The notes beneath the pieces were generated by a model, which was given only the letters and a program-made list of their open reading frames with translations, was not told the origin of the DNA and did no database searches. A stretch of DNA of 64,000 nt. Source: Candidatus Hadarchaeales archaeon. Its GTDB lineage: Archaea > Hadarchaeota > Hadarchaeia > Hadarchaeales > Hadarchaeaceae. Both the position numbers and the translations under genes were made by a program. The DNA lies in the NCBI GenBank assembly GCA_038851075.1, contig JAWCLG010000001.1:46206-110205 (forward strand), given 5' to 3'. Positions 1 to 57,900 of this stretch are shown one piece after another; the stretch's first letter is position 1; each line of letters begins with the position of its first letter.

Positions 1-322
1 TTACGAATGAGCTGCATTCAGTTCCGTATCCCCTTCCATGGGTAATCCTAACAACGATGACGGAATTATCACGTACCTCCACAGCGTAGTAACTTCCACC
101 AAGGCTCGGAGGTAGGTCCTTGAAGGGCTGCTCCCCGGAAAGCGCTGCAAATGCAGTTCTGCCGAGCTCATCTGCAAGCGAACTGGCCTCCTCCTGAACC
201 CTCATGTCCATCTGACGCTCGTAAACGGCCATGAACAGGGCGAATATCAGCATCCCGAGAATCACGCTGTAGAGCACTATAAGCGGGAAGCTGGAAGCAC
301 CTTCCTGACAAATGTCTCTCAG
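1..322 (-). CDS. Partial small pilin-like (class III signal-peptide-like) protein. Its 3' end lies beyond the left window edge and its start is unresolved.
   Basis: My own translation shows an open minus-strand frame from 331 down to position 2 that runs off the window. It reads ...RDICQEG|ASSFPLIVLYSVILGMLIFALFMAVYERQMDMRVQEEASSLADELGRT...LPPSLGGSYYAVEVRDNSVIVVRITHGRGYG... This is a short polar stretch followed by about 25 hydrophobic residues, like the pilin-like ORFs at 15.1-17.5 kb. The first ATG (253) and GTG (277) fall inside the hydrophobic helix. Only CTG (322, overlapping the upstream stop as CTGA) or ATT (313) precede it. It is absent from the ORF track because it has no stop in the window. 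Confidence 0.4.
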   Translation of the reverse strand, partial: MRDICQEGASSFPLIVLYSVILGMLIFALFMAVYERQMDMRVQEEASSLADELGRTAFAALSGEQPFKDLPPSLGGSYYAVEVRDNSVIVVRITHGRGYGTECSSFV

Positions 323-705
323 ACGCTCACCTCAACACCGTTCTCGACCCTCAGAAGCCTCATGTTCGCGGACGTGCCGCTCAGCGCCGGGCCAGATACC
401 TGAATCCCCACGTATACGTTATCGGCCCTGTTCCCGATGATGAAATTTACGGAGCTGTCTCCAAACGAAAGCTCACATCCGGATGGCACATATATCTGGA
501 GATGCCATTCTGTGCCGGGGTCCTGAGCCGCAAGGGACCTTATGCGGTTGGCGAGTTCCTCAACACTCCCGGCGAAACGCTGCTCTTCCATCGCCCTGCT
601 GTATCCGGTGTACAGCACAACGGCCATCGATATGAACATGGCCGCCATGATCGCATACGCCAGGTAGTTCAGCGCTCCCATTCGACCACTGATAATTATC
701 TGCAT
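319..705 (-). CDS. Small pilin-like or membrane-anchored protein of unknown function
   Basis: 128 aa. The N-terminus MQIIISGR|MGALNYLAYAIMAAMFISMAVVLY is followed by a helical segment and a beta-rich C-terminus. The architecture matches the small ORFs of the 15-17.5 kb pilus-like operon. Confidence 0.45.
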   Translation of the reverse strand: MQIIISGRMGALNYLAYAIMAAMFISMAVVLYTGYSRAMEEQRFAGSVEELANRIRSLAAQDPGTEWHLQIYVPSGCELSFGDSSVNFIIGNRADNVYVGIQVSGPALSGTSANMRLLRVENGVEVSV

Positions 706-13730: not shown

Positions 13731-15062
13731 CTACAGGGCCGGGAGAAGCTTCTCCACCTCCCAGTTGTGAACATGTGTACGGTACTCATCCCATTCCCTG
13801 CCCTTTATGTACAGAAAGTGAGTGAACAGGTGCTCTCCGAGCGCCTCCTTAACAAGAGAGCTCTTCCTCATGTACTCCAGCGCCTGCCCGAGGCTCCCTG
13901 GAAGCATCTCTATTCCCGCCTCCTCCCGCGCCTCATGGCCCATTTTATAGATGTCCCTCTCTACCGGCTCGGGCGGCTCTATCCCTTCATCAATTCCCCT
14001 CAGTCCCGCCGCGAGCATGAGCGTGAACTGGAGGTACGGGTTTCCTGCAGGGTCTGGGCTCCTGAGCTCTATCCTGGTCCTCTGCCCCCTGCCGGCCGGG
14101 ACCCTTATGTAAGCACTCCTGTTCCTGTTTGCCCATGATATGTACACCGGCGCCTCGTATCCTGGCACCAGTCTCTTATACGAGTTAACCGATGAAGCGA
14201 GTACCGCGCATATCTCCTTTGCGTACTTCAAAAGTCCTCCTATGAAGTGCAAACACGTCTTGCTCAGCCTGTACTGACCCTTTGGATCGTAAAACACGCT
14301 CTTATCCGCTGAGGTCATCAGTGACATGTGTACATGCATGCCGGAACCATTTATTCCATATATCGGCTTCGGCATGAAAGTCGCGTACAGGCCATGCTTG
14401 TACGCCACGGTCTTAGTTACGTACTTCATCATGGCGACCCTGTCCGCAGAAACCACCGCGTCTGAGTATCTCAGGTCTATCTCGTGCTGGCCCGGCGCGA
14501 CCTCGTGGTGGGAAGCCTCCACCTCAAAACCCATCGCGTTCAGATAGGTGACTATCTCTTTTCTGACACCGTCTCCCCTGTCTCTCATCAGGTCGAAGTA
14601 TCCCCCGTGGTCCGATGGCTTCGTGGTAGGGTTTCCGTTCTCGTCCACCATGAAGAGGAAAAACTCGTACTCGGGTGCCGTGTTGAAGACCCATCCCTTA
14701 TCTCTGGCCACCTTCATCAGCCTCTCGAGGGCAAACCTCGGATCTCCTGCAAACCTGTTTCCCTCATGATCGTAAACGTTACATACCATTCTCGCGGTTT
14801 TTGTAGAGTCATCAGTCCATGGTATGACGACAAAGGTGTTAGGGTCCGGCTTCAGCCTCATATCTGATTCCTCTATTGTGGCATAGCCGAGCACCGAAGA
14901 CCCGTCAAAGAATATCCCCTCCTCGAGCGCCTTTTCAAGCTTATTATCCGGTATGGTTACATTCTTCACCGTTCCAAGGATATCCATGAACTGCATCTGA
15001 ATGAACTTCACATTCTCCTTCTTCACTATCTGGAGTATCTCATCTGCAGAAGTCATTTTCAT
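13731..15062 (-). CDS. glnA: Glutamine synthetase, type I
   Basis: 443 aa. It has the N-terminal beta-grasp domain (VKFIQMQFMDILG), FDGSS, the ATP-binding region (GSGMHVHMSL) and NRSAYIRVP. Confidence 0.9.
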   Translation of the reverse strand: MKMTSADEILQIVKKENVKFIQMQFMDILGTVKNVTIPDNKLEKALEEGIFFDGSSVLGYATIEESDMRLKPDPNTFVVIPWTDDSTKTARMVCNVYDHEGNRFAGDPRFALERLMKVARDKGWVFNTAPEYEFFLFMVDENGNPTTKPSDHGGYFDLMRDRGDGVRKEIVTYLNAMGFEVEASHHEVAPGQHEIDLRYSDAVVSADRVAMMKYVTKTVAYKHGLYATFMPKPIYGINGSGMHVHMSLMTSADKSVFYDPKGQYRLSKTCLHFIGGLLKYAKEICAVLASSVNSYKRLVPGYEAPVYISWANRNRSAYIRVPAGRGQRTRIELRSPDPAGNPYLQFTLMLAAGLRGIDEGIEPPEPVERDIYKMGHEAREEAGIEMLPGSLGQALEYMRKSSLVKEALGEHLFTHFLYIKGREWDEYRTHVHNWEVEKLLPAL

Positions 15063-15088: not shown

Positions 15089-15098
15089 GTTAAAAAAG
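15089..15098 (-). promoter_or_regulatory. TATA-like box upstream of glnA. The same T-run is a plausible terminator for the upstream pilus-like operon.
   Basis: The minus strand reads TTTTTTAACA, 25 nt upstream of the glnA ATG (15062), in the 48-nt gap after the last pilin-like gene. Confidence 0.3.
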
Positions 15099-15110
15099 AT
15101 GACGTGGACT

Positions 15111-15776
15111 TCAAGCCAGCGCCCTCCCTGCAAAATCATCCTTAACCGTGACTCTGACCCTCCCGCCCACGCGCTCTATATAAAAAGTCAGGAGCTCGCA
15201 TGAGTATTCCGTGTTGTATCTCCTCTCAAGATCTTCAAGGTCACCGTAGCTCAGCGCCTCTTCATACGCCTTATTTGCTAGATAATACATTCTTCCATAC
15301 CTGGGTACCACGCCCGCGGAAAGCTCAACGCCGAATCCTCTCGTTCCCGAGATGTGCGTCACCACCGCGTCAAGGTATCCTGCGGCCATGAGGCTGCCGT
15401 CGGGTAGCCAGACAAGCTTCAACGAGTTCTCATCGCTCAGCGGGACCACGATATCGAAGTTGGGATAGCTCCAGCCTGCCCCTATTCTCTGGTTGAAGTA
15501 CTCCCTCAGAGTGACGAGCACCCTCTCGCGATCCCCGCCAGCCCTGCCAACCTCATACATGGAAGCCTCCACCGATGTCCTCAGCGCCTGGTTGAGCTCT
15601 CTCTCCAAGGTCTCTGACATTGCCCGCGTGGTCTCAAGGGCAATCCTCCTCTCCATCGCGTCAAGCTGTTCCCTGTAGCCCTCTTCAAAGATGTAAACCG
15701 CGGCGAGAGATGTGATGATGACGAAAACGGAGAAAAACCCGAGAACCGGAGCCGAACCGCGAACCATTTTCTTCAA
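15111..15776 (-). CDS. Pilin-like protein 5 (class III signal-peptide-like N-terminus, long helical region)
   Basis: 221 aa. MKKMVRG|SAPVLGFFSVFVIITSLAAVYIF is followed by a helical segment (EEGYREQLDAMERRIALETTRAMSETLERELNQAL). It overlaps the upstream gene by 4 nt. Confidence 0.55.
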   Translation of the reverse strand: MKKMVRGSAPVLGFFSVFVIITSLAAVYIFEEGYREQLDAMERRIALETTRAMSETLERELNQALRTSVEASMYEVGRAGGDRERVLVTLREYFNQRIGAGWSYPNFDIVVPLSDENSLKLVWLPDGSLMAAGYLDAVVTHISGTRGFGVELSAGVVPRYGRMYYLANKAYEEALSYGDLEDLERRYNTEYSCELLTFYIERVGGRVRVTVKDDFAGRALA

Positions 15777-16288
15777 CCGCTCACCTCGAACATCTTCAGC
15801 TTGGCATTAACTTGGGCCACCCTGTTCTCACCCTTCCCCGCGATTATTAGCGTTACCTTGCCGGAGAACTCGCGAAACGCCACTGTGTCGGCGTGCGCAT
15901 CAGGCGGAAAAGTCTGGACCCACCTGTTGTCCCCGTATCGAAGCTCGAGTTCAAGACCATATCCCTGAGGGCATATGTACCCGAGAACGTTTTCCGTTCT
16001 ATCAATTATGTACTCTCCCGGAAGTGAGGCATCCGATCCAAAGTTCTCCATCACCAAGTTCTCCGATATCGCCTCAAGGTAGGTCAGAGAGGAATTCTCA
16101 ACATTGGAAAGCTCGAGAACCTTGTAAGCGTACTCCACCTTCATCTGGATCTGTCTCCCATTCGCGGATGATATCGCGTCGATGCCGTACGAGTGAAGGA
16201 GCACCCCCGCCAGTATCGCGATTATGAACATCACTGCTATGCTGAGTATATCGCTTATTCCCCTCTCAGAACGGCTCATGCCCTCCAC
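15773..16288 (-). CDS. Pilin-like protein 4
   Basis: 171 aa. MEGMSRSERG|ISDILSIAVMFIIAILAGVLL is a basic patch plus RG followed by a hydrophobic helix, as in archaeal class III signal peptides. Confidence 0.55.
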   Translation of the reverse strand: MEGMSRSERGISDILSIAVMFIIAILAGVLLHSYGIDAISSANGRQIQMKVEYAYKVLELSNVENSSLTYLEAISENLVMENFGSDASLPGEYIIDRTENVLGYICPQGYGLELELRYGDNRWVQTFPPDAHADTVAFREFSGKVTLIIAGKGENRVAQVNAKLKMFEVSG

Positions 16289-16725
16289 ACGACCACCTCC
16301 ATCTTGCCGGGGACATATCGAAAGTTATCGAAGATGATCACCGGCAGCAACAGCGCGCACCTCTCCCGCCCCTCCGCAGGTTCCGGTCCGAAGCTCCAGC
16401 TGGAACTCCCTGAATAGAACCGCAGCCCGTATTCAAAGTTCTCCCCTCCCATCGTCTCCATGAAGCTCAGCTGATTTACCCTGCCCAGATCAAGAACATA
16501 GCTTACCTCGGTATTTCCCTGTCTGAGCGCCAGCCTGTTGAGAACAAGATCGTTCGCCACGGTACCCGTGGCATCCACAAGAGCCGCTGTGGAGAGCGTG
16601 TATTTGTAGTGCTGGTAGGCTGAAAACATGAGAAAGAGGAATACGATGATCATGAATGCCGTCATAACTGCCTTGAATATCCTTATCAGGTCCATTCGAC
16701 CACCAGCCTGCCGTTCTCGGTCCAC
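16276..16725 (-). CDS. Pilin-like protein 3
   Basis: 149 aa with the N-terminus MDRERQAGGR|MDLIRIFKAVMTAFMIIVFLFLMF. An alternative start at 16695 (MDLIR...) is possible. It overlaps both neighbours. Confidence 0.5.
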   Translation of the reverse strand: MDRERQAGGRMDLIRIFKAVMTAFMIIVFLFLMFSAYQHYKYTLSTAALVDATGTVANDLVLNRLALRQGNTEVSYVLDLGRVNQLSFMETMGGENFEYGLRFYSGSSSWSFGPEPAEGRERCALLLPVIIFDNFRYVPGKMEVVVWRA

Positions 16726-17048
16726 ACCGTTATAGTGCGCCTTCCGGGGTCGACCGGAGGTATGCCGTCAGCGAACCTCATCAACAGACCCCCCTCCGGA
16801 ACAGAATATCCATCTACCGAAATCATGTTATCGCTGAAGGTCATCTTAAAGTTCCCCGGAATGTAAACATCGGCAACCTGATGCCCCCCAACCTGAACAG
16901 CGACCTCGCAGGCGTGCGCCACTTCTATCGCTGCCGCTCTGGCAGCGCTTTCATCCGACGCATGGCGAAACACAAGATAACAGAAAAAACCGATCACAAG
17001 CGCCATTATCGTTAGAACGAGAACTCCCAAAGTGCGCAGGGAAGGCAT
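16686..17048 (-). CDS. Pilin-like protein 2
   Basis: 120 aa. The N-terminus MPSLRT|LGVLVLTIMALVIGFFCYLVF is followed by a beta-rich C-terminus. Confidence 0.5.
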   Translation of the reverse strand: MPSLRTLGVLVLTIMALVIGFFCYLVFRHASDESAARAAAIEVAHACEVAVQVGGHQVADVYIPGNFKMTFSDNMISVDGYSVPEGGLLMRFADGIPPVDPGRRTITVWTENGRLVVEWT

Positions 17049-17054
17049 GGGAGA

Positions 17055-17507
17055 TTACACCAGCGTGAGTTCGAGCGTGGCCGTCTGCTCGATGTCGTCG
17101 GCGCCTCTCCCCCTTATCGTGAGCGTGACGGCTCCCGGGGTTGCCGTATTGTCCACGGTGATGGTCATTGTTGACCCGAATCTCGGCTGTCCGCTTCCCG
17201 GAGAGAAGCTGACCCTCACCCCGGTGGGCTCCCCAGTAACGGAAAGGGTGACCGTTTTGCTGTAGTCACCGATTTTTTCCACAGTCACTGAAAGGTTGGT
17301 GGACTCTGACCCGCTCTGAGGTATATTCAGGCTCACAGAGCTGGGGGAAACAGTTACGCTGAATGAGGTCAGCTGCTGTATTCCCCTGCCCGCCCAAGTG
17401 TAAACACCGTACGCTATGCTGAGCCCGATCACAAGAAGTATTATGCCTGCAAACAGCTTCATCGCCAGCGGCTCCACACCGCGTTCCTCCGCAATCGGTC
17501 CGAACAT
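17055..17507 (-). CDS. Pilin-like protein 1 with an Ig-like beta-sandwich C-terminal domain (candidate major subunit)
   Basis: 150 aa. MFGPIAEERG|VEPLAMKLFAGIILLVIGLSIAYGVY is followed by SVTVSPSSVSLNIP...TVTLSVTGEPTGVRVSFSPG...TMTITVDNTATPGAVTLTIRG. An SD-like AGGGGA lies about 7 nt upstream of the ATG. Confidence 0.55.
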   Translation of the reverse strand: MFGPIAEERGVEPLAMKLFAGIILLVIGLSIAYGVYTWAGRGIQQLTSFSVTVSPSSVSLNIPQSGSESTNLSVTVEKIGDYSKTVTLSVTGEPTGVRVSFSPGSGQPRFGSTMTITVDNTATPGAVTLTIRGRGADDIEQTATLELTLV

Positions 17508-17567
17508 CTTTTCTTCCCCTCAAAAAACCTTAACCCTGCGAACCTTTTAAATCAGTCGTTCAAGGCG

Positions 17568-19547
17568 CTACCTGATCCCAACTGTTATCAACGTCAGCAG
17601 AAAGCTCGTGATTGTGAAAATTGCGGCCGAAGACAGGGATGATTTTAACACGGCTGACCACATTTCAACCCTATCCGGACCTGCGCGGATCCTCGCAATA
17701 TAAGACGCCACTATCATCCCGAGTAATACCGCGGTAGCACCCATGAGAAAACGCAGTATCGCCAGATCCCCCTGTGCCATTACCCCAAAAAGGAAAGGCA
17801 TGCCCGTCACACCGGCTGCTGAAGCCTGGGCCGCCACCCTCATGCTGAGCCCCGCCATGAAGTCCATAACCCACACAGACATTGCGCATACCACTGGAAT
17901 CAGTACCACCGCAACCAACCACAGATTGCCCAGCGCCTCGCCGATCCTCTCTCTGAAGTTTCTCTCAACCCTGTGAAGCGTTCTCAAGAACTCAGCGGCG
18001 GTCATGCAGGCGCGCCCTGCCGCCAGCTCGCTGTCGCTCCTGATCCTGGATATCGTCGAGATGAAGCTCTCAATCAGCCAGTTGCCTCTCTTTTTGTTCC
18101 CTCTTCCGAATATGGACTCCTTCAGCCCCATCCCGTACCTCTCCATCTTAGCGCTCGCTGACTTTAACTGGGCTGACAGCGGGGAACCTTCCATCAGCGC
18201 CCCTGCTTCGGCCATTGCGCTTGAGACCGGCTTTCCGTCCAGCATTCTGGAGCCCATTGTGTTAAGCGCGTTGCTCCAGTCCTCCATCATCCTTCTCTCC
18301 TCATCACGCACCTTCCTTCGCGTGGAGGAGTAAAGGTATCCGTATGTTGCCAGGGCAGCCGCAAGAGCCCATACAAACCACATCGTGTTGAGGCTGCCCG
18401 CTACCAATCCTATAATTCCCTCACTCCATCCCATAAAGTGCAGTATGCCCGGGATTGAAAGCGCAAGAAAGACGATCGCGGTGGGGACTATCACCGGGAC
18501 CTTTCTGGAGAAGATAAAGCACTTTCCGGGAGGAGGCAGCCGGGGATCGTCCTCCGGCGGCTCAGGAGCGTGTATCGTGGCCGGCCTCCCCTTTGACATG
18601 TAGGCCGTGAATGCCCAGAATGCAAGTACCAGCAACGAACACATGAGAACGAAGAACTTTATGTCAAGTACCGATGTTCCTATCATCCCAAAAACCGGAG
18701 ATAGCCCGATGACCCCAATTATGGCAAGGGAGCTGAAAGTCAGGAAGGCGAGCGTTGGCATTATCAGGCCCCCGAGCTTTCTTGTCAGCTGTTCCTCCGC
18801 ACCCTCCAGCACTCTTGAAGGTGCCCTCGAAATATCCGCCAGGCGGGCCGACTCATCCTTTGTGCCGGTCGACCTCAGAAGGTCGAAAATCGCCTGTCTC
18901 GTGCTCTCATCGATCTCCCCCCACTCATTGGCTATGACCGTGAGGAGGTGTCTGACCGTGTCGTACTTCCTTCTCTCATCAAGGTCCAGCAGTCCCCTCT
19001 GGAGGTCCTCGGCGAGTCTGCCCTCAGTTGAATCCGCAGCCTGAACCACCGCGCTCCTCAAATCAGGACGGTGGTAGAGTGAAAAACTTAGGAGCATTAC
19101 CGTAAGCACCGCTTTGCCCTGAGCATCCGCCCTTCTGGATGCAGCAACCGATGAGGGATACACCTGAACAGCCATGAAAGCGAAGGCGCCCAGCAGTATT
19201 CCTGAAAGCGGGAGATAAAATGCGGTGAAGGGATCCGAGCCGGTAAACCAAATGGCGATCCAGAGTCCGATGAAAAGCAGGATCGGGACCGCCAGCGCGA
19301 GCACGCTGCCGCCAAGCCACTGCTCGGGCGTGAGATCTAGACCCGCCTCTCTAAGCTCCCTCCTTGACCTCTCGCTGATTTTGGACCCCTTCACGAGCCA
19401 TCCGAAAATCCTTCCCCCGGCATCACAGAACCTCTCATAGCGCGCCCGTTTCTTTTTCACAAGGCGCTCCACCAAAGAGCGCACATCGGCTGGAACCGGA
19501 AAAGCCTCTGGAATAGGCTTCAGGCTTTTTTCAGCCAATTTCGCCAC
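17568..19547 (-). CDS. Polytopic membrane platform protein, FlaJ/TadC (T2SSF)-like
   Basis: 659 aa. It contains two repeats of a cytosolic helical domain followed by TM helices, the architecture of type II/IV secretion F-family platform proteins. It sits directly downstream of the secretion ATPase and overlaps it. The start is either GTG at 19547 or TTG at 19538, and GGAGGAG lies 8 nt upstream of the TTG. Confidence 0.55.
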   Translation of the reverse strand: MAKLAEKSLKPIPEAFPVPADVRSLVERLVKKKRARYERFCDAGGRIFGWLVKGSKISERSRRELREAGLDLTPEQWLGGSVLALAVPILLFIGLWIAIWFTGSDPFTAFYLPLSGILLGAFAFMAVQVYPSSVAASRRADAQGKAVLTVMLLSFSLYHRPDLRSAVVQAADSTEGRLAEDLQRGLLDLDERRKYDTVRHLLTVIANEWGEIDESTRQAIFDLLRSTGTKDESARLADISRAPSRVLEGAEEQLTRKLGGLIMPTLAFLTFSSLAIIGVIGLSPVFGMIGTSVLDIKFFVLMCSLLVLAFWAFTAYMSKGRPATIHAPEPPEDDPRLPPPGKCFIFSRKVPVIVPTAIVFLALSIPGILHFMGWSEGIIGLVAGSLNTMWFVWALAAALATYGYLYSSTRRKVRDEERRMMEDWSNALNTMGSRMLDGKPVSSAMAEAGALMEGSPLSAQLKSASAKMERYGMGLKESIFGRGNKKRGNWLIESFISTISRIRSDSELAAGRACMTAAEFLRTLHRVERNFRERIGEALGNLWLVAVVLIPVVCAMSVWVMDFMAGLSMRVAAQASAAGVTGMPFLFGVMAQGDLAILRFLMGATAVLLGMIVASYIARIRAGPDRVEMWSAVLKSSLSSAAIFTITSFLLTLITVGIR

Positions 19548-21688
19548 TCCTCCATGACCTTACGATAATCCGGTGCGTTGCGCTTCACCGAGGAGAAGTA
19601 TGCGTTGTAGGCCCTGCTCACGAACGGAAGCTCCAAGAACCCGGGATTCTCGGATTTTCTGGCAAGCATTAGAATGTCGGACTTCATCTTCGCCTCGGTG
19701 AGTACGCCCTCTAAAAATTCTCCCTCATCCAAGGCGAGCCTCCTGCAGAGATCCGGAATGAGGTGGCTGCCTCCGTTTTCAGGCGGTAGAAACTCCAGAT
19801 TTCTAACAGCATCCTCAAGACTGAACTTTGAGAGATCCTGTGAATTTGCGTGCTCAATCGTCCTCCTGTTTCCCTTGAACAGGTTCCTGGGCTCCAGAAC
19901 GTCCTCCTTCCTGTTGTCGGAGAACATTTCGACGTACTCAGGCCTGTCGCTCCAGTCCTTAAGCACCTCAGATACCTCAACTATCCTTCTGACGGTTCCT
20001 GAGCGGGAGGTGAACCTTGCGGTGCTCACGATTAAGTCTACGTACTTGAAAGCCGCCTGATGCAGACCCATTATATGAACTATAAGGTCAAACATCTCGC
20101 GCTTGCTTCTCGAGTGAAAGCTCGCGACCACGGGTTGCGAGCCCTGCCTGGCTGCGGCGCCGAGCGCGGCTCTCACGGCCTCTGCCGCCCTGACCTCGGT
20201 GATCAGCCAGTAGCTCGCCCCTCCTCTCAGGAACGCGTTCACCTGCCGCTCAAGGTGCTCCGGATCCGAGACCCTCACATTCGCAAGCTTGTACCCCGAT
20301 CTTACGAACTCATCAACGTGAAGCTCCTCGGTGTCCTGAAATGCCACAATTCTGTTATCGGAACCAATCTCCGGGATGTAGGTTTCGAGCTGTGAGGTCT
20401 TTGCCGTTCCCATCTCGCCAATTACGAACGCGCTGGAGCCGAGCCTCAGCAGATTACCAAGCATGGAGCTGGCGAGAGGCGTCAGCGTGCCGCGGTCGAG
20501 GAAGAGAGGCTGGGTCCATGGAGTGGATCGCCTTCTCCTGATCGCCATCTCAACGCTCCTGGGCCATATCGCCGGGTGACGGCTGAGGAAAAGCCTCATC
20601 CCGAGCTCCGGGATCTCAGCGTCAAGCTGCGGATGTATTTCGTCAAAAGCGGTCCCGAGCCTGGAAGCCAGAGTCTCCCCGAGCCCTAGCAGTGAGGGCG
20701 TGGTGAGGTATATCCCTGTCTCCAGCTTACCCCAGCGCTCGTGATCAACCACAACCGGCTGCATCTCCGGAGGCGCGTGCACATATATGTCCGTGATCCT
20801 GTCGTCATGGGAAAGAGGCTCAAGTGCCCTGTAGGTGAGCCAGTTTGCCATCGTGCGTGCAAGATCTCTCACCTCTTCCGTTGAAACCCTTTTATCACCT
20901 CCCTCGAGCATCTGCATGAGCGCGGCGTACCACTCCTCCGCAAAAGAGCGTATCGCACCGGAACGGGCGAATCTGGCGTGTCCTGGTGCCTCGTCCACCT
21001 CAACGCGGAACGCCCTGTACAGGAGGGAGAGCTGCTCCTGCGGAATCCCAAATTCCGGAAGGTTAACGCTGTAGAATGGAACCGGATTATCCTCCCTCTC
21101 GTATATCTCCACGCTTCCCCTTCCACCTGGCAATTTGTAGCTGTCGATAACCGTTGCGTTGCGCGGTGGCGGGTGCCAGAGTCCATCTACGAAGAAAGGC
21201 TTCGCTCTGACCTCGAAGAATCTGTCATAACCGTCCTCCGACACCCTCTTCAGTCCCTTTATCTCTCCCAGATGTCCTTCAACGGTCTCCATCGCTTCCT
21301 TGAAGATCCCCTCACCGCGTTTTCCGTACACCTTTGTGAAAGAGCGCTTCACATCCCTGATCGTCTTCTCGTCCGCCCCGCTCGGATTCTCCATTATCGC
21401 TCTGAACAGTCCCTCCACCGCCTCCAGCTCCTTTTCATCCAGATCCAGGCTCTTCCTGCCCTCAACATGCAACAGGGCATCCACTACGGCACGTTTTGCG
21501 GCTGCCATCGCGGTGGCGAGCCTCGATAGCTCGATCGAAGTATAGGTTCTCGTGATTTCCCTTCCGATGGTTACCCGGTCAAAATCTCCCTCACCCGCGA
21601 GCCGGCTTAGAACGCATGCCCTGCATCCCGGATTATCAAGCGAGCTAGGACCTTCGCACCCAAAACAGTCGAACTCAGCCACCCGCAC
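19520..21688 (-). CDS. Type II/IV secretion family ATPase (FlaI/VirB11/GspE superfamily) with an extra N-terminal Cys4 domain
   Basis: 722 aa. The FlaI-like N-domain is IDSYKLPGGRGSVEIYEREDNPVPFYSVNLPEFGIPQEQL. The P-loop is FVIGEMGTAKTS, followed by RIVAFQDTEEL, WLITEVRAAEA and the His box VASFHSRS. The N-terminal ~180 aa are additional and begin with CFGC-x11-CRAC. Confidence 0.8.
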   Translation of the reverse strand: MRVAEFDCFGCEGPSSLDNPGCRACVLSRLAGEGDFDRVTIGREITRTYTSIELSRLATAMAAAKRAVVDALLHVEGRKSLDLDEKELEAVEGLFRAIMENPSGADEKTIRDVKRSFTKVYGKRGEGIFKEAMETVEGHLGEIKGLKRVSEDGYDRFFEVRAKPFFVDGLWHPPPRNATVIDSYKLPGGRGSVEIYEREDNPVPFYSVNLPEFGIPQEQLSLLYRAFRVEVDEAPGHARFARSGAIRSFAEEWYAALMQMLEGGDKRVSTEEVRDLARTMANWLTYRALEPLSHDDRITDIYVHAPPEMQPVVVDHERWGKLETGIYLTTPSLLGLGETLASRLGTAFDEIHPQLDAEIPELGMRLFLSRHPAIWPRSVEMAIRRRRSTPWTQPLFLDRGTLTPLASSMLGNLLRLGSSAFVIGEMGTAKTSQLETYIPEIGSDNRIVAFQDTEELHVDEFVRSGYKLANVRVSDPEHLERQVNAFLRGGASYWLITEVRAAEAVRAALGAAARQGSQPVVASFHSRSKREMFDLIVHIMGLHQAAFKYVDLIVSTARFTSRSGTVRRIVEVSEVLKDWSDRPEYVEMFSDNRKEDVLEPRNLFKGNRRTIEHANSQDLSKFSLEDAVRNLEFLPPENGGSHLIPDLCRRLALDEGEFLEGVLTEAKMKSDILMLARKSENPGFLELPFVSRAYNAYFSSVKRNAPDYRKVMEEWRNWLKKA

Positions 21689-21822
21689 CGGACCCAGTGA
21701 CCTTATCTCAAAGCTAGCCGGACCCCACAGGTTAATCCCGTGTTATTTATCCACCACACCATAAAAAAATGGTGCATAAGCAAAAGTCTCATAAATCGGA
21801 CGTGTTCAGATGAAGTGGTGAA

Positions 21823-22434
21823 ATGCTGAAGATATGCGTGATAGGAATCCAGGGGGCTGTTTCGGAGCATATCACTGCCGCGCGGGAAGCCATGAAAAAA
21901 CTTGGAATGAAAGGCGAAGTCATCTGGGCAGAAGATCCGCACGACTTCGACGGGGCTGACGGCGCTATAATTCCTGGAGGGGAAAGCACGACAATAGGGA
22001 AACTGATGTTGAAAACCGGGACCTTCAATGTACTGCAGGAGCTTGGAGCTTCTGGTTTTCCGATCATGGGGACGTGCGCCGGAATGATACTTCTATCCAA
22101 AAAAGGTGATGAAAGCGTGGAGAGGACCGGTCAGCCGCTCCTGGGCCTTATGGACATTGAGGTCATCAGGAACGCTTTCGGAAGGCAGAGGGAATCGTTT
22201 GAAGCAGATATCGAGATACCGATACTGGGCGATGAACCCTTTCCGTGTGTTTTCATACGCGCACCCGTGATCAGAAAAATATGGGGAGATGCCAGGGTAA
22301 TCGCGGAGTTCCGGGGAAAAATAGTTGGGGCCGAGCAGAAGAACATGATAGCGGTTGCCTTTCATCCGGAGTTGACAGCGGACACCAGACTGCACGAATA
22401 CTTCCTGAAAAAGTGCGTGGAGCAAAAGAGATAA
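21823..22434 (+). CDS. pdxT: Pyridoxal 5'-phosphate synthase glutaminase subunit PdxT
   Basis: 203 aa with MLKICVIGIQGAVSEH, IIPGGESTT, the catalytic GTCAGMILL and AFHPELT. Confidence 0.85.
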   Translation: MLKICVIGIQGAVSEHITAAREAMKKLGMKGEVIWAEDPHDFDGADGAIIPGGESTTIGKLMLKTGTFNVLQELGASGFPIMGTCAGMILLSKKGDESVERTGQPLLGLMDIEVIRNAFGRQRESFEADIEIPILGDEPFPCVFIRAPVIRKIWGDARVIAEFRGKIVGAEQKNMIAVAFHPELTADTRLHEYFLKKCVEQKR

Positions 22435-24261: not shown

Positions 24262-24304
24262 AGTTAATCTTAAATGAGGCTGCGGTTAAGTAGGTGGGGT
24301 GAAC

Positions 24305-24580
24305 ATGAGAGGATGGTTGATACTCGGAGCAATATGCGTGTTTGTCGTCATATTGCCCATAATTGCGCTCGGAGGATATTTCGGGGACATTGCAAGAACA
24401 GTGGGGCAGGTAGTACTCACCGTTGTCCTGCTTGGTCTTCTGGTCGCAACCGGCGCTTTTGGATACATATGCATCAGGGCACAGGCTGCCAAATGGGGCG
24501 CGGGACTGGTGCTGATAGCGGTGCTGTGCCTTCTTGCGGTATTTTGGATATGGACGGGCAGGATACTGCTGGTCATCTGA
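24305..24580 (+). CDS. Small hypothetical membrane protein (3 TM helices)
   Basis: The sequence MRGWLILGAICVFVVILPIIALGGYF...VVLTVVLLGLLVATGAFGYICI...LVLIAVLCLLAVFWIW is strongly hydrophobic and helix-like. The track start at 24299 is a GTG two codons upstream. Confidence 0.4.
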   Translation: MRGWLILGAICVFVVILPIIALGGYFGDIARTVGQVVLTVVLLGLLVATGAFGYICIRAQAAKWGAGLVLIAVLCLLAVFWIWTGRILLVI

Positions 24581-51877: not shown

Positions 51878-53911
51878 TCACTTTCTCTTTATCAGTTCGA
51901 ATATATCTGGAGATATCATCTCGCGTCTGCGCTTGATCTTCCGGGCGATGAGAAATATAACGATTGCCACGACCACGATAACCGCCACTATCACAATCAA
52001 TCCCGTGTTTCCTTCCTCAGGACCAACGATAAGAGTTATGCTCTTGACGTGCCTCTCTCCTCCGTAAACGAGCACGAGTTCACCCATATAAACGCCGTAT
52101 TCCGCGTACTGTGGATTGGCAACCGTAAAAATTATCGTGCTCTCAACCCCAGGCTCAAGAGCTATTATTATCTCAGCGGGCTTTACATCCCAGCCTGGCG
52201 GAAGTTCCAGCCTCACGCGCACCGGCACCGTGTTCTCGGTTATGTTATTCAAACAAACGTGTATCTCGCCAGTCCCCCCAAGAAACATCTGCTTGGAGTA
52301 TAACCGGACCACCTGAATCGCCGCGGCGCCTGTTTCATAAATCGCGGTGAGCTGTTTCACTTGCCAGTAGAAAAGCGGAGCCAGCTCGTCCTCGATTTTT
52401 CCAACTGAGTACGATACGCGTCTCCTCTCGTAGGATTGTATGCCGGACAGTGCCCACCTGACCACCGGATCGCTCTCCAAAATTTCTGGTTCCGGGTCGA
52501 ACGAAACTTCCTCGGCGCTCGCTACCATCGTTTTCGGTATTCCCTCCGTTATCTCAACCGAACTCAGCGGAAGTCTGGAGTTCACAACGTGCAGAAAAAC
52601 ATTCGTGCTGTAATCCGCACCGTCTATCTCGACAGTTCTGGTCAAAACCGGGCTGGCGTCCGAGCACTGTTTAACCCGTATAATCGCGACTGCGTCTGCT
52701 GCTGCGTTTCCGCTGCTTGCCCTGAACCTGAGCCAGTAATCCCCGGGCGAAGTATTCCCGGAAACGCTGAAAACTCCGGCCAGAGATACCTCCTCGAGAG
52801 CGGCCAGAGTGAACGCTCCAGGCACAAACGTCGCCATGTTCTCCGCAGTTCCAGATAACGCGACCGTGATTCCAGACAGCTGCACACTGCCATTGTTCTT
52901 TATCTTGACATCAAGGAATCTGGTCTCCCCCTGAACCATCTCGACGAGAATCGGCCTGAGTTCCCAGCTCAGATACTCCTCAACCGGTAACACCAGCCCG
53001 CCTATCCCGAAATATGAAAGACCATCGGACTCTGCAGAGTAGAACACGTGCGACACATTTTCTCCAGTCTTCGATGTGGGGAGCGGCCTCCAAGTGTTCC
53101 CAATGTACCGATACATCCTGACTGAGGATTCGTCTATGAAGTTGACCGAAAGCCAAGACTTCTCCACCGAAAAAAACAGTGTCACGCTGCTGACAGCATC
53201 CTCCGAAATTCCGCTGACATCGACTCTAAAATACTTATAGGGGACGGCTGGGATCGCTGGAAGAGATCCGGGAGGAACGCTCCCAAACTGATAAACCGTA
53301 ACAGAGCAGTCATCTATGCTCTCACTCACCACTACGGTTATCCGTCTAATAACCAGGGCACTGAAGTTGAAGACCGCAGGATTTTCCGGTCCAGCCTGGA
53401 AAAACTTTGCGTTTTCCACCAATTCAGATTCCACGATCACCTCAGGCGGAAGCGGGGGCTGTTCCTCCAGCACGGAAAACGGAGTGGAACTTGAAACAGA
53501 ATGATCATCGTAGATTATCACAGCTGTAGCCTGGTAGTTCTCAGCCGTAATATTCTCAACTGTCCATATTAGCGTTAGCTCCACCTCTCCTTCCGGCGGG
53601 ATGGACTCTCCGGGTGGAGTAAAATAAAGGGTTTTAACAGTGCTTCCTGCCAGAGATATCTCCACACGGGAAACCCCAGATATGTCAATTGGCAGATCCC
53701 CTACATTCCTCAGGCGAACGTAAAATTCCACAACCTCTCCCGGAAGAGCCTCATTGGGGGTGACGCTGAACTCCTCAATAATCGCTCCCATTTGAGAAAC
53801 TATGGCAATAACGCCGCCCGACGCCTCCTGAGCGTCAGCATGGGGTAGAAAAAACGATAAAATAAACAAGACTAAAAACAGTGCAACTGCAGCCGAATGG
53901 CAGGAGGACAA
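51878..53911 (-). CDS. Cell-surface protein with CARDB/NEW3-like beta-sandwich domains, a PGF-pre-PGF-like domain and a C-terminal TM anchor
   Basis: 677 aa. The TTG start follows GGAGGT, and the Sec-type signal is ...FFLPHADA|QEAS. CARDB-like segments are ALPGEVVEFYVRLRNVGDLPID and GETRFLDVKIKNNGSVQLSG. The central block is VYQFGSVPPG...YKYFRVDVSGISEDAVSSVTLFFSVEKSWL...VRMYRY..NTWRPLPT...SDGLSYFGIGG (the PGF-pre-PGF pattern). The C-terminus is LIVIVAVIVVVAIVIFLIARKIKRRRE. Confidence 0.7.
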   Translation of the reverse strand: MSSCHSAAVALFLVLFILSFFLPHADAQEASGGVIAIVSQMGAIIEEFSVTPNEALPGEVVEFYVRLRNVGDLPIDISGVSRVEISLAGSTVKTLYFTPPGESIPPEGEVELTLIWTVENITAENYQATAVIIYDDHSVSSSTPFSVLEEQPPLPPEVIVESELVENAKFFQAGPENPAVFNFSALVIRRITVVVSESIDDCSVTVYQFGSVPPGSLPAIPAVPYKYFRVDVSGISEDAVSSVTLFFSVEKSWLSVNFIDESSVRMYRYIGNTWRPLPTSKTGENVSHVFYSAESDGLSYFGIGGLVLPVEEYLSWELRPILVEMVQGETRFLDVKIKNNGSVQLSGITVALSGTAENMATFVPGAFTLAALEEVSLAGVFSVSGNTSPGDYWLRFRASSGNAAADAVAIIRVKQCSDASPVLTRTVEIDGADYSTNVFLHVVNSRLPLSSVEITEGIPKTMVASAEEVSFDPEPEILESDPVVRWALSGIQSYERRRVSYSVGKIEDELAPLFYWQVKQLTAIYETGAAAIQVVRLYSKQMFLGGTGEIHVCLNNITENTVPVRVRLELPPGWDVKPAEIIIALEPGVESTIIFTVANPQYAEYGVYMGELVLVYGGERHVKSITLIVGPEEGNTGLIVIVAVIVVVAIVIFLIARKIKRRREMISPDIFELIKRK

Positions 53912-54041
53912 ACTTAGACCTCCAATTAAATAATACCTCTACATCGTATATGACATTTCCTCTTATTCGCCGGCGAAATAATCACAGAATTCATGACCTA
54001 AACCGAGCTGCCCTTACATAGCGGCAAAAAAATCGTGCTAA

Positions 54042-54797
54042 CTATTTTTTCTTTGTTCGCCGCCTGTTTCTGCTTACCGCTGCAGTCTTGGCGGCCTTTC
54101 TCATCTTGTAAGCCATGACTGCCGTGAGACAGACAAAGGCCCCCACCGCAACAATTGCAACCCATATCGGAGGTGGTAGAGTAACAGTGGGAACAGGAGG
54201 ACCGATAACATAGAACCGTGGCTTTGCTTCGTACGCTATTGCGACCTCGAGTCCGGTGCCTATCACCTGGGAGTTCTCCCTGCCCGTAAACGGAACATGA
54301 AGCTGATATTCACCTCTGGGCACATTTTCGGAAGCGGTCAGGATGAGCGTCACCATTATGGCCAGGGCATACCTGTTATCTCCCAATTTGAGGTAGATAT
54401 CAAAACCCTCTGGAAGCTCCTGAGATGAGTAAGTGAAGTAATCCGTGTCGGGGATGTAAAAGTTGGCACTGACGTTTTCCGTCTTCCATCCAAAATCCAC
54501 CTCAAAAATCTGCGGCTCCGGACGAACTTCCACATTCCACCACTCCGACGGCGTTGGCTCCCCATCGGGGGTTGTTATCGTGATATCATTTTCATCTATG
54601 CTCACAAAGAAACCCTTATCTTTACCAACGTTGAAGACATACATCACTATGTTCTCCGAGCCACCTTGGGGGACTCTGGGATTCTGCGATGCCTCCCCGT
54701 TGTAAGATATTCCGTAGCCGGAGACGAGGGGGACCGGAAAAACCAGCTGTAAACACAGACTCAACAAAACAAGAAATTGGAAGTAAGGTCTCCTCAT
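54042..54797 (-). CDS. Secreted, C-terminally anchored hypothetical surface protein
   Basis: 251 aa. The signal peptide is MRRPYFQFLVLLSLCLQLVFPVPLVSG, followed by a beta-rich body and a C-terminal TM helix with a basic tail (WVAIVAVGAFVCLTAVMAYKMRKAAK...RRRTKKK). Confidence 0.55.
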   Translation of the reverse strand: MRRPYFQFLVLLSLCLQLVFPVPLVSGYGISYNGEASQNPRVPQGGSENIVMYVFNVGKDKGFFVSIDENDITITTPDGEPTPSEWWNVEVRPEPQIFEVDFGWKTENVSANFYIPDTDYFTYSSQELPEGFDIYLKLGDNRYALAIMVTLILTASENVPRGEYQLHVPFTGRENSQVIGTGLEVAIAYEAKPRFYVIGPPVPTVTLPPPIWVAIVAVGAFVCLTAVMAYKMRKAAKTAAVSRNRRRTKKK

Positions 54798-54900
54798 TGC
54801 AACACTCCCATCTGTGCAAATTTTCGGGTTATTTGTATATAGTTTTTGCTTACGGATTACGGGGCATCAAAGTCTGGAGACTGATCCAACCAGCTTTTTA

Positions 54901-57900
54901 TCACTCTGTTGAGACGAGTTTCACCCATATTGTGCCGTTGTAGGTGCCTCCCATCTGGTCCTCCCTCGTTCTGATGAACAGATACACGTTCTGGGTGTTA
55001 TCGTCTCCGGATGGGACCGCTATGCTGGTCAGCCAGGGGATGTCCTGGTACGAGGTGGAGAGCCTGAGGATGGGTCCGCCGTCGTAGCACGTTGAACCGG
55101 TTCCCTCGTCGAAGTGCCACACCGCCAGCGTGTTGTCGTCCACCCAGAGCCTCCTCCCGGAGCCTGAGTTGTAGTGATCGGCAACTTCAGATGCGGTGAG
55201 GACGCGGTTCTCCAGCCTCACCTCGTCTATCTTTCCCCTGAAATATCGAGTGGAAACATCTGTGGTGTAACGCCCTATGTAGAGGCTGTTCTCGGTATCG
55301 CTCACTATGTTCCCTGAGCCACCGGAGGCCCATGTATCGTATGTCACCTCAGACCCGTTTATGTAGATGATGATCTGCCCGTTGCTTCCGTTGTAGGTGA
55401 CGACGATGTGGTTCCATGCGTTTGCAGTTATGTTGTCCTTGGCGGAGACTCCCCAGTAGTTGCCGGTTGGCTTTATGACGACCACGAGGTCCAGTTTCTC
55501 GAGTTCCTCGCCGGCACCACCGTTCTCCAGATAGATGTCCCAGCCGTTGGTCGGAGGCCAGGTGTCACCGCGCTTTATGAGAAGCCTGGGCTGACCGGAG
55601 GAGAAGTTCTCCGGATATATCCACATCTCGACGCTCAGGTTTGGCAGCCCGCCCGCCGGGGCAAGTTCGTCCGAATGGGGGATTGCGACATAGTCGCCGC
55701 TGCCGTCAAACACGAGCGCGTTGTCAAGCTTCCCGCTGGTCCACGCCGCGTCCCCGTAGAGCGTCCCGTTGTCCCGGTATGATGTCGTGCCGTTACTCAT
55801 GCCAACGTTGTCGATGCCTATGTAGTCTGGATACGTTCCGGTCTTCTGGAGGTTGTCACTTCCTTTAACCTGGGCTTTTGTGGGTGTTGACGTGGTGGAC
55901 TTTATTATGATCTCCATCGGATTGCCGTTGTCCGGGTCGGCTATCCGATCCACGGCACTCTTTGGCAGGTCTGACCACTTCGGCAGCTTATTTATCTCCA
56001 CGTCGATGACAACGGGGGGCGAGCTGTAGCTTATCCTCACCTCTGAAATCACCGGAGTCTGGACTCCTCCCGTGAACTCAATTATGTACTGCAGATAGCG
56101 GTTTTCCCACGGCAGATCGCTCCCGTTCTCGGCCTCCACCCAGTCCGACCAATCAGAATTATCGCTGGAACTCCTTGTCCTCACAACCACGGATGTGTCT
56201 GGAGGAGTTGTGTTGTCGAACTCAATGATATCCCACATAACGATTTCTTCGGCGTCTTTAACAGCAGATGTGTAAACTCCGGATGGTTTGTAATTTTTCG
56301 CGTGCTGAGCTATCTCGGTCGGACTTAGGGCCCTATTCTCTATGCGAATCTCGTCAATCATTCCCTTAAAAAAATTTTGAAGATTAAAGGCCTCGCAACC
56401 AACTGTGAGGTCATTATCACACCAGTTAAGATTCCCGGAATACCCTCCCTGATTCACATTTGTCCCATCAACGTACAGAATTGCGTTGGAACCATCAGCG
56501 ACTCCAACAATGTGATACCATCCCTGCTCGAACGTCGTCTGATAACTCACCCACGTTCCCCATTCGCTTCCTGTGCTCCCAACCCCCCACGTTATCTTGA
56601 AGTTGTTGGAGCTATCCGTTTCTATTTTTAATATGTAACCCTTTACATTCCACGAGCCACCCCAGAAATTCTTTGAAACTATCGTCTGAGCTGAGTTCAA
56701 CGCGGGTTGTTCATAAAAATAGGCCCAGCATTCGACCGTGATCTCCTGTGTTGGATTCAAACTCGCATCATTTTCCACTCTCACGTATTCGCTCCCGTTG
56801 AACCACAGGGCACTGCCAAACTTTCCGCCCTTCCAGATGGGGCACTCTGTGGAAGACCCGTCATTACCGCAGGCGGAAGAATCCCCGACGCAATTGTCGG
56901 CGCCCTCGTTCATGTGCCAGAGACCGACGGTGCTCTCATCTGAATCGAGTTCCTGATCGTTCTCATAATTACCTGCGATCTCGTTGGAGGATGCATTGTC
57001 GGAGGGTGTCCATTTCAAATGATCCAAATAAAATAGCCTGTAGGTGCCCCCTTCCACGGTGATTTTGAAGAGATACTTAACATGACCGAGGTCAAATCCG
57101 CTGAAGTCATCAAGAGGGATTGATATGGGCTGCCAGGTGTTTTCACCGTTCCACCCATAGTCGCCTATGTAAAGCGGGCCTCGGTTGCCTCCCGTGTCTT
57201 CCACTTCGACCTTGAGATTATACGCGGTCTTGACCCAGAACTTCAGATGCCCCCCGGAGTAAGACGATAGATCTTTGTCACCAACATGTGCCCCCCAGCC
57301 AGCCCAGCTGCCGGAATTTGTTTTCGTCTCAAATGACTTGGTTCCCTCCGGAGGAGTCTCAGCGGTTGAACTCGCATCAAAGCTCCCGGCATCCCCATCC
57401 GACCATGTATACCAGTTTACGCCGGAGACAAAACCAGCATCATTGTATATTGGATAGTTCTCTGTTCCGGTCGGGGAGCGGTTCTCAATACGCACCTCAT
57501 CTATGGTGCCGTTGAATGCCTCCATAGCTCCAGCCGACACCTCCTTCCAACCACCAATGTAGATGGCTTCGGGCGCAGGATAATCACCTGAAAGCGCTGC
57601 TGTGTTCCTCAACTCCCCATTTATGTACAACTTCAGGTCGGTTCCTTCCTTTACCCCGGCTATGTGATACCACGTATCCGCGTTGAGAGACATTGGATAC
57701 TGTGCCTTATATGTACTTCCAGCGCTGTTCTTGAACTCAAACGCAACCAGATCGTTCCACTCCTCATAACCAAGAACCCAGGAGTAGTCCCATATGTCAC
57801 CTGATGTGTTGTCCTGACGCACGAATACTCTCCACCCGTCCTCAGCAGTTGGGTAACTCGCGGCGGGCTTCACCCAGCACTCCACGGTAAAGTCCCCGGA

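Follow-up and report, generated by a model that had tools for sequence, protein, structure and literature searches.

Seven minus-strand genes at positions 15111-21688 of the window (the whole 64-kb stretch of DNA that was analysed, from contig JAWCLG010000001.1 of a Candidatus Hadarchaeales archaeon) probably form a complete, lineage-specific assembly module for a type IV pilus-like filament. The genes, lettered A to G here, encode a secretion ATPase (A), a platform (B) and five small pilin-like proteins (C to G). We regard this operon as an undescribed, lineage-specific branch of the known archaeal type IV filament machinery and not as a new kind of machine. An earlier note, made from the letters of this DNA alone, had called it an uncharacterised, non-archaellum type IV filament machine, and that description stands, because no curated cut-off for an archaellum, bindosome or Tad family is reached and archaellum accessory genes are absent. 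The filament would most likely serve in adhesion or cell-cell contact.

The open reading frames (ORFs) agree exactly with the seven co-directional genes of the earlier note, and all have homologues in syntenic loci of other Hadarchaeota.

19520-21688, minus strand: A, secretion ATPase, 722 aa
17568-19547, minus strand: B, platform, longest ORF, 659 aa
17055-17507, minus strand: C, candidate major pilin, 150 aa
16686-17048, minus strand: D, small pilin-like protein, 120 aa
16276-16725, minus strand: E, small pilin-like protein, longest ORF, 149 aa
15773-16288, minus strand: F, small pilin-like protein, 171 aa
15111-15776, minus strand: G, largest pilin-like protein, 221 aa

The overlaps of 28, 40, 13 and 4 nt given previously are arithmetically right for the longest ORFs. 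However, the A/B and D/E overlaps shrink when the gene starts are corrected. Gene B most likely starts at TTG 19538, giving 656 aa (17568..19538), as this is the NCBI call (656 aa), homologues begin with MAEK, and GGAGG precedes this codon by ~10 nt; this reduces the A/B overlap from 28 nt to 19 nt. For gene E, the most likely start is ATG 16695, giving 139 aa (16276..16695), which sits 3-4 nt past a GGTGGT Shine-Dalgarno-like motif and leaves a D/E overlap of 10 nt in place of 40 nt.

The ATPase and the platform

On its sequence matches, A clearly belongs to the FlaI/GspE/CpaF secretion ATPase superfamily. It is 100% identical to a protein encoded on a 118,563-bp contig of an NCBI metagenome-assembled genome (MAG) labelled Candidatus Hadarchaeales, and consists of an N-terminal CxxC...CxxC domain (residues ~1-250), a core (~250-600) and a C-terminal helical extension. 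The best PDB matches are Archaeoglobus fulgidus GspE2 (E 2.5e-14), FlaI (E 2.7e-12; 4ii7 is among the best) and CpaF (E 1.2e-9). As these cover residues ~270-590 only, A has ~250 extra N-terminal and ~130 extra C-terminal residues. The best-scoring curated model is NCBIfam FlaI NF058587 (82 bits over residues 251-594, cut-off 550). TadA TIGR03819 gave 57.9 bits (cut-off 373), the NCBIfam models for TrbB and VirB11 33 bits each, both far under their cut-offs, and the bindosome ATPase model BasE NF053672 31 bits (cut-off 1000). Pfam T2SSE (PF00437) matched A with 23.7 bits and an E-value of 2.2e-5, under the cut-off of 24.9, and is carried by about half of the clusters of close homologues of A in a precomputed table. 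A Pfam search found neither PilB3_N nor PilB3_C in A. These results uphold the earlier assignment of A to the FlaI/VirB11 superfamily, and place it outside the archaellum, bindosome and Tad families as these are currently delimited. None of the seven operon proteins reaches a curated Pfam or NCBIfam cut-off, which indirectly argues against an exact match of the operon to the characterised archaeal pili Aap, Ups and Epd.

The catalytic motifs of A are not canonical. In the window copy, the Walker A motif is GEMGTAKTS, the Asp box FQDTEEL and the Walker B motif WLITEVR, so that the glycine before the Walker A lysine is replaced by alanine, the first glutamate of the Asp box by glutamine, and the glycine of Walker B by threonine. 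The same forms, namely G-x-x-G-[TS]-A-K-T-S, [FY]QDTEE[LI] and W[LF][IF][TS]EVR, are found in all 16 Hadarchaeota ATPases aligned (40-73% identity). K430, T431, S432, E498 and the His-box residue H525 are invariant, and the catalytic Lys, Thr/Ser, Glu and His are thus all kept. A is predicted to be an active but atypical enzyme and, as a natural secretion ATPase in which the Walker A glycine is replaced, offers a useful test of P-loop tolerance. The second CxxC pair, which is present in most homologues, has been lost from the window copy.

The annotated start codon of A is GTG. Directly 5' of it and in frame (21689-21745, minus strand) is the peptide L-W-GPASFEIRSLGP, which resembles the N-terminus of the homologues, MVGPASFEVKESGPLKVAEFDC. 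This region contains no canonical start, and CTG 21730 is the sole codon aligned with the methionine of the homologues. Either the operon has a second non-canonical start here, or this is the trace of a recent start-codon loss.

B (656 aa) has ~9 transmembrane helices and two cytoplasmic helical bundles, at about residues 130-260 and 415-540. No Pfam domain, T2SSF (PF00482) included, is found in B or in its 74 homologue clusters, which are annotated as 'hypothetical' and come from Hadarchaeota without exception, and a 16-sequence profile of B found nothing among PDB sequences. An AlphaFold (AF2) model of B built from a 16-sequence alignment is all-helical, with a predicted local distance difference test score (pLDDT) of 79.8 and a predicted TM-score (pTM) of 0.73. 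Foldseek matched this model to the cytoplasmic domains of EpsF (3c1q/2vmb), OutF (5nbg) and PilC (2whn) with a probability of 0.99-1.00 and a target TM-score of 0.60-0.75, and to the GspF-like SpoIIIAB with a probability of 0.97-0.98 and a target TM-score of 0.62-0.64. These were the sole high-probability matches; the whole-chain E-values were poor because the library held no full-length platform.

Homologues of B in a wider DPANN family, described below, connect it to T2SSF. The Hadarchaeota B profile aligns end to end with the DPANN proteins (E 1e-61), and three of nine DPANN-family homologues tested gave sub-threshold T2SSF matches over the whole profile (E 5e-4 to 8e-4). The best stretches in the three (residues 158-288, 169-294 and 457-587) fall at the two positions expected. 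The gene for B overlaps that for A. On its modelled fold, this transitive homology and its position, B is taken to be a PilC/GspF/TadC/FlaJ-like platform that has no direct profile match. The two repeats of a cytosolic domain plus transmembrane region that the earlier note described in B are thus apparent in the model and in the DPANN T2SSF matches but absent at the level of sequence profiles. Of the T2SSE and T2SSF matches looked for, the first was found for A narrowly below the cut-off, and the second was not obtained directly for B, despite its GspF/PilC-like fold.

Five small proteins with pilin-like leaders

Each of C to G begins with a short polar leader that ends in a conserved G or A; ~22 hydrophobic residues follow, which form the single hydrophobic stretch of the protein. 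The conserved N-termini were derived from stop-to-stop translations of the syntenic loci. In the following lines the slash marks the predicted cleavage site.

C: MFGPIAEERG / VEPLAMKLFAGIILLVIGL; family consensus x-K-x-L-D-Q-[RK]-G / V-E-P-L-A-M; canonical-looking
D: MPSLRTLG / VLVLTIMALVIGFF; family M-P-A-L-R-T-L-G; non-canonical, basic residue at -4, G/A at -1
E (corrected start): MDLIRIFKA / VMTAFMIIVFLFLMF; family M-D-L-I-R-I-F-[KR]-[AS] / V
F: MEGMSRSERG / ISDILSIAVMFIIAILAGVLL; family ...[KR]-G / [VI]-S-D-[VI]-L; canonical-looking
G: MKKMVRG / SAPVLGFFSVFVIITSL; family ...[KRENQ]-G / [SAG]-[AV]-x-[TV]-L

The cleavage sites proposed earlier for C (ERG/VEPL), F (ERG/ISD) and G (VRG/SAP) are conserved in homologues. 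Those proposed for D and E are not, and conservation favours MPxLRTLG/ for D and MDLIRIFKA/ for E. In C, the motif [DE]x[RK]G/VEPLAM is kept in 10 homologues, and a leader ending in G is kept in 21 diverse representatives of G, down to 27% identity. D retains G or A at -1 even in distant members (loci L006 and L088 in our numbering). The small ORFs are therefore conserved in syntenic loci together with a G/A site ahead of the hydrophobic helix.

A simplified class III rule was applied to all six frames of the window. It required a start codon, then 3-30 leader residues with [KRDE][GA] at the end, and a mean hydropathy of at least 1.7 over the next 20 residues. It picked C, E, F and G. It also matched a 93-aa ORF with multiple transmembrane segments (24290-24580), starts internal to other ORFs, and two short ORFs that lack annotation. 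The class III layout read earlier in all five proteins thus passes this FlaFind-like rule in four; D fails at -2 but keeps G/A at -1. When the features are taken more broadly (a charged leader, G/A at -1, ~20 hydrophobic residues and no other transmembrane segment), they are present in all of C to G, D with its basic residue at -4.

The earlier statement that the small proteins resemble no nameable pilin is too strong. As reference we used the Pfam-confirmed Pilin_N pilin (57.8 bits) encoded in another Hadarchaeota locus, L008. Aligned to it with hhalign, F gave a probability of 74.6% (E 2.7e-5) over 43 columns, with leader, cleavage site and helix in register, and the hidden Markov model (HMM) of F matches the same pilin at E 0.0019. 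The leader of C aligned in register over 13 columns (36.8%, E 3.6e-4), xKxLDQRG/VEPLA in C facing MKRLDKRG/VSPVV in the pilin. A match of F to the core of the Iho670 filament, beginning at +1, was weak and non-significant, and the profiles of C, F and G gave no significant match among PDB sequences. Kinship between C and F was also considered; hhalign shows no relationship beyond the N-terminus, and the five families are not detectably paralogous. The operon thus supplies five new pilin-like families.

C contains one Ig-like beta module at about residues 45-150. The globular domain shares 32-42% identity with a beta module of ~100 aa, repeated in tandem at least 5 times in the 919-aa protein P0194, which has weak Ig/fn3 signals, and this bears out the earlier reading of an Ig-like domain. 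A database search with concatenated C to G yielded nothing but large proteins in which the Ser/Thr-rich beta module of C recurs. Ig-like modules occur in many archaeal pilins (Makarova et al. 2016, PMC4858521). In two syntenic loci, L083 (9496-9936) and L004 (3164-3658), the Ig-like module of C is also encoded just upstream of the ATPase gene (C HMM, E 5e-13 and 5e-11, respectively), in proteins whose N-terminus is an ordinary signal anchor and not pilin-like.

For G, an AF2 model from 21 sequences (pLDDT 88.2) has a 70-residue N-terminal helix that begins at the predicted +1, a second helix, a four-stranded sheet, two helices and three strands. The long helical region noted earlier in G is thus recovered. 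Only 39 representative clusters of G were found among 1.84 billion proteins.

The start codon of E, at the D/E junction (16686-16725, minus strand), is ATG in the window and in L085. However, it is ACG in eight of the 10 syntenic loci (L001-L004, L013, L081, L083 and L084). The codon lies 3-4 nt past the conserved GGTGGT and a few nt ahead of the stop codon of D. In the eight ACG loci, there is no ATG, GTG or TTG between the in-frame upstream stop and the conserved peptide DL[IV]RIF[KR][AS]V, which is translated, to judge from its many synonymous changes. This suggests that E is made by ACG initiation or by termination-reinitiation, perhaps holding E at low copy number. A -1 frameshift giving a D-E fusion was also considered and is judged unlikely, as there is no conserved slippery site and two loci have a plain ATG.

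The operon is flanked by a divergent pdxT-like gene and by glnA, and its candidate transcription signals are as follows.

21823-22434, plus strand: pdxT-like gene, upstream of the operon, divergent
21689..21822, no strand: divergent intergenic region between the ATPase and pdxT-like genes, with A/T-rich ATAAATAA at about 21750-21743
17508..17567, minus strand: B-C spacer, 60 nt, with TTTAAAA (17551-17545), T6 (17527-17522) and GAGGGG (17521-16)
15092..15097, minus strand: T6 run, 13 nt past the stop codon of G
13731-15062, minus strand: glnA, downstream of the operon

The operon promoter presumably lies in the divergent intergenic region. GAGGGG in the B-C spacer was read 8 nt ahead of the ATG of C, and the spacer may hold an internal promoter and ribosome-binding site for this candidate major pilin. 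The T6 run after G is a candidate archaeal oligo-T terminator, which would separate the operon from glnA. From this run and the spacer elements, one or two transcription units (A-B and C-G) would be expected.

Two further observations were made in the window. A 128-aa ORF at its left edge (319-705, minus strand; MQIIISGRMG/ALNYLAYAIMAAMF) has no Pfam or NCBIfam match and matches the HMM of the D family (E 4e-5), which identifies it as a putative D-like paralogue; a second small cluster may extend past this edge. At 51878-58431 on the minus strand are three consecutive putative surface-protein genes. The first product (1176 aa) matches Laminin_G_3 with 236 bits and has other Laminin G-type matches, the second (251 aa) has no match, and the third (677 aa) contains CARDB and NPCBM_assoc. 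These proteins may be part of the envelope that the filament must cross.

Distribution in Hadarchaeota and interpretation

An alignment of the ATPase was scanned against 185,579 species-representative genomes, which yielded 15 Hadarchaeota loci and 65 more distant ones; eight further Hadarchaeota loci were added via exact-sequence look-ups, though a look-up of A itself in this way found no record. The order of all seven genes is kept in 10 other Hadarchaeota loci (L001-L004, L081-L085 and L013, where the contig stops inside F). The small proteins are 33-67% identical across the syntenic loci, and glnA usually lies downstream of the operon. In distant Hadarchaeota lineages, with ATPases 50-58% identical to A, only A and B are adjacent and the remaining genes are dispersed, which makes A and B the fixed core. 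In L006, D, E and F follow B, and G and a second D-like gene are upstream. In L009 and L088, G, a D-like gene and a gene for an N-terminally anchored protein of 315-331 aa lie 3-7 kb from A and B. The G homologue of the L014 assembly is on a different contig (L086, 8001-9527) from the ATPase-platform pair, and has a C-terminal extension of about 290 aa fused to it that is beta-rich and rich in Gly, Thr and Ser, as one would expect in an adhesin-like minor subunit at the tip. Among the partners of A and B, D and G are retained most widely, and the complete seven-gene operon is typical of one subclade. The C to G families were found in Hadarchaeota loci only; for G alone, this covers a library-wide search.

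In a further Hadarchaeota genome, the A and B pair is immediately followed by a fully canonical type IV pilus locus (L008, 11638-18224). This locus comprises genes for a KaiC-like ATPase, the Pilin_N pilin, a MinD-like protein, a PilB3-type ATPase and a T2SSF platform. As L008 carries both, a canonical pilus and the A and B system coexist in Hadarchaeota.

If the operon encodes a filament machine, C to G would be inserted into the membrane via their N-terminal hydrophobic helix, and a class III signal (prepilin) peptidase encoded elsewhere would remove the polar leader after the conserved G or A. A, as a hexamer, would dock on the cytoplasmic helical bundles of B, and ATP-driven movements of B would raise the subunits out of the membrane, to be packed helix against helix in a fibre. 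C would be the repeating subunit, as it is encoded by the first pilin gene, with its own TATA-like element and ribosome-binding site, and has the most canonical leader and a single Ig-like domain. D, E, F and G would be low-copy minor pilins that prime assembly and are placed at the tip.

Several observations weigh against this interpretation. The activity of A is unproven, because the P-loop glycine is alanine, the Asp-box glutamate glutamine and the Walker B glycine threonine. C to G match none of Pilin_N (PF07790), the class III signal/DUF361 model and TIGR02537 at E <= 1, so that this profile check, suggested in the earlier note, did not come out in favour of pilins. D has no charged residue at -2. 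Foldseek found no meaningful fold match for the model of G in the PDB and a pilin fold is therefore not claimed for it; its layout of a transmembrane segment, a long helix and an alpha/beta region also suits a PilO/GspM-type scaffold. An hhalign comparison of the two halves of B detected no internal sequence repeat (probability 2.6%). Finally, the membrane ORFs of the window include no Peptidase_A24 match or suitably placed GxGD motif, in agreement with the earlier note that no prepilin peptidase is present there, and a screen of about 22 Hadarchaeota loci for GxGD-type motifs, flanks included, also gave no peptidase. Such a peptidase is presumably present in the phylum, as L008 encodes a canonical KRG/VSPV pilin.

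It is unlikely, in our view, that the same machine builds a short, envelope-bound pseudopilus that acts as a piston or scaffold for DNA uptake, secretion or the display of binding proteins. The gene layout equals that of the comG operon and of the pseudopilin set of the type II secretion system (T2SS), the small proteins resemble minor pilins in four cases out of five and include no PilA-family pilin, and a canonical PilB3/TadC/Pilin_N system such as that of L008 could supply the ordinary adhesive pilus. It has also been argued that archaeal type IV filament machines are often functionalised with binding proteins (preprint 10.64898/2026.04.22.720090). However, no gene for a DNA channel, nuclease, substrate-binding protein or secreted cargo is linked in any locus, the BasE score of A is far from its cut-off (31 bits vs 1000), and the separate promoter-like element of C fits a highly expressed repeating subunit.

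The P-loop is rewired yet invariant and the platform is unrecognisable by sequence, and A and B may be a distinct machine. In that case they would no longer drive an ordinary pilus and would be central to a separate machine of the archaeal envelope, such as a device for secretion or uptake that works through a pseudopilus and has five Hadarchaeota-only subunit families, a proposal we find somewhat more doubtful than a pseudopilus built by the familiar machinery. We know of no such device demonstrated in archaea apart from the bindosome.

An improbable reading is that no filament is made at all, A and B forming a membrane ATPase complex with another role and C to G being uncleaved bitopic scaffold or stator proteins like PilN/O or FlaF/G. 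The adjacency of A and B alone in most Hadarchaeota lineages, the deviating motifs of A, the layout of G, the -2 residue of D and the missing peptidase would fit such a role, and a loss of type IV pilus function has been considered for the two-gene Thermoproteales subclade 4D (Makarova et al. 2016, PMC4858521). However, every one of the five families retains G/A at -1, even in members only 27-33% identical, and this makes a role outside filament assembly less likely. Moreover, a genuine pilin can be aligned in register with the leaders of F and C, D and G are found within a few kb of A and B even where the operon is broken, and the DPANN relatives of A and B adjoin canonical pilin-like genes (MKAQG/LPLNTIVLG) and giant adhesin-like proteins. 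A decaying relic with an inactive pseudo-ATPase, which might be read from the three non-canonical motifs, the CxxC pair lost from the window copy and the two genes without a canonical start at the conserved position, is hardly credible, decay being excluded by conservation: ~115 ATPase and 74 platform clusters (40-73% identity) have intact reading frames, the deviant ATPase motifs are themselves invariant, and the conserved E peptide has abundant synonymous third-position changes, as under purifying selection. Neither a dN/dS near 1 nor frequent frameshifts or stop codons, which would favour decay, are apparent in the data.

We therefore retain the filament assembly module, at the strength given at the outset. 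The Hadarchaeota are found widely in the subsurface and in hot springs, and are known almost exclusively through metagenomes; their cell surface is uncharacterised. A culture-based 2024 study states that the Hadarchaeota it examined (Ca. Melinoarchaeum) have no gene for a PilA pilin and occur as single cells (PMC11297162). The phylum is not covered by Makarova et al. 2016 (PMC4858521), and a 2026 census preprint that uses arCOG-derived models for 12 subsystems (10.64898/2026.04.22.720090) never mentions it. Standard annotation is blind to the operon, as public records label six of the seven products 'hypothetical' and no Pfam family matches the platform or the pilins, and arCOG-based finders of type IV filament systems would probably also miss it. 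The operon thus adds a candidate surface filament for the Hadarchaeota lineages that carry it.

Relation to known systems

Among the closest known systems is the PilB3/PilC3-PilA system of Haloferax, which belongs to euryarchaeal clade 2 (Makarova et al. 2016, PMC4858521) or system 2 (Sivabalasarma & Albers 2026 preprint). Like A and B, it has a single-gene platform after an ATPase with extended N- and C-terminal regions. Its loci also include several pilin-like genes, some with non-canonical signals, the ATPase/TadC genes are separable from the pilin genes, and large adhesin-like genes are shared with the DPANN relatives of A and B. Archaeal ATPase/TadC modules are known to use pilins encoded in trans (PMC4858521), and A and B standing alone, with D and G kilobases away or on another contig, match this habit. 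However, the operon has no PilB3_N, PilB3_C or PilA/Pilin_N pilin, and its P-loop is non-canonical. The canonical PilB3-type ATPase of another Hadarchaeota genome, which has PilB3_N and PilB3_C, scores 119 bits against T2SSE, compared with 23.7 bits for A, and is 23% identical to A over 257 aa; against T2SSF, the canonical platform scores 95 bits and B gives no match.

In the comG operon of Bacillus subtilis, genes for an ATPase and a platform are followed by those for one major and four minor pilin-like proteins, and the prepilin peptidase is encoded elsewhere. The gene order of the operon described here equals that of comG and of the T2SS pseudopilus module, as an analogy only, since the sequence relation is no closer than the superfamily. 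The leaders are of the archaeal [KR]G/V type, there is no conserved Glu5, and no competence genes are linked, unlike in comG.

FlaI of the archaellum is among the best matches of A, but reaches only 82 bits against a cut-off of 550, and A is longer by ~250 N-terminal and ~130 C-terminal residues. As the earlier note had observed, the operon has no archaellum accessory genes: FlaH, FlaF/G, FlaC/D/E/X and archaellin genes are all absent, and no operon protein matches an archaellum family above its cut-off.

The Thermoproteales subclade 4D (arCOG05558), compared by its description only, also has an ATPase with an N-terminal Cys-rich domain, though a small one, and a two-gene core of ATPase and membrane protein that often has no adjacent pilin genes, as in many Hadarchaeota. 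It differs in that its ATPase has no C-terminal domain and the partner has 4-5 transmembrane segments, whereas here the ATPase is extended, the platform has ~9 and pilin-like genes are present.

The 65 distant loci (L016-L080) are from MAGs of Woese-, Aenigmat-, Nano-, Pace- and Parvarchaeota and from MAGs labelled Methanosarcinales. Their ATPases (750-780 aa) align with A over the full length at 23-29% identity, and 58 of the 65 loci have a platform homologue of ~690-750 aa (blastp, E 1e-8 to 1e-41), whose gene in almost every case comes immediately after that of the ATPase, so that the two genes are adjacent and in the same order as A and B. Unlike A, these DPANN-type ATPases keep the canonical SGKTS, EDTxEL and VGE[IV]R motifs and pass Pfam T2SSE (67.7 bits). 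The loci have no homologues of C to G, and encode canonical-looking pilins such as MKAQG/LPLNTIVLG, giant N-terminally anchored adhesin-like proteins (900-2090 aa), three paralogous proteins with five transmembrane segments and, on the opposite strand, two cytoplasmic coiled-coil proteins.

Part of this neighbourhood is conserved without a family assignment in L020, L026, L029, L038, L046 and L075, about 1-4 kb upstream of the ATPase gene. It includes the two opposite-strand cytoplasmic proteins (about 125-170 and 212-284 aa; in L046 the pair has weak coiled-coil matches only) and one to three of the paralogous proteins with five transmembrane segments (~170-215 aa; three in L020, L046 and L075). 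Giant N-terminally anchored proteins of up to 2090 aa are encoded near the ATPase-platform pair in L016, L019, L021 and L075.

Given these distant homologues, the A and B pair of Hadarchaeota seems to have branched off, and to be evolving fast, from a wide family that is poorly described and itself looks like 'system 2' of the 2026 preprint. The link to this family of long ATPases and long platforms points to a branch of the archaeal type IV filaments that has been under-described.

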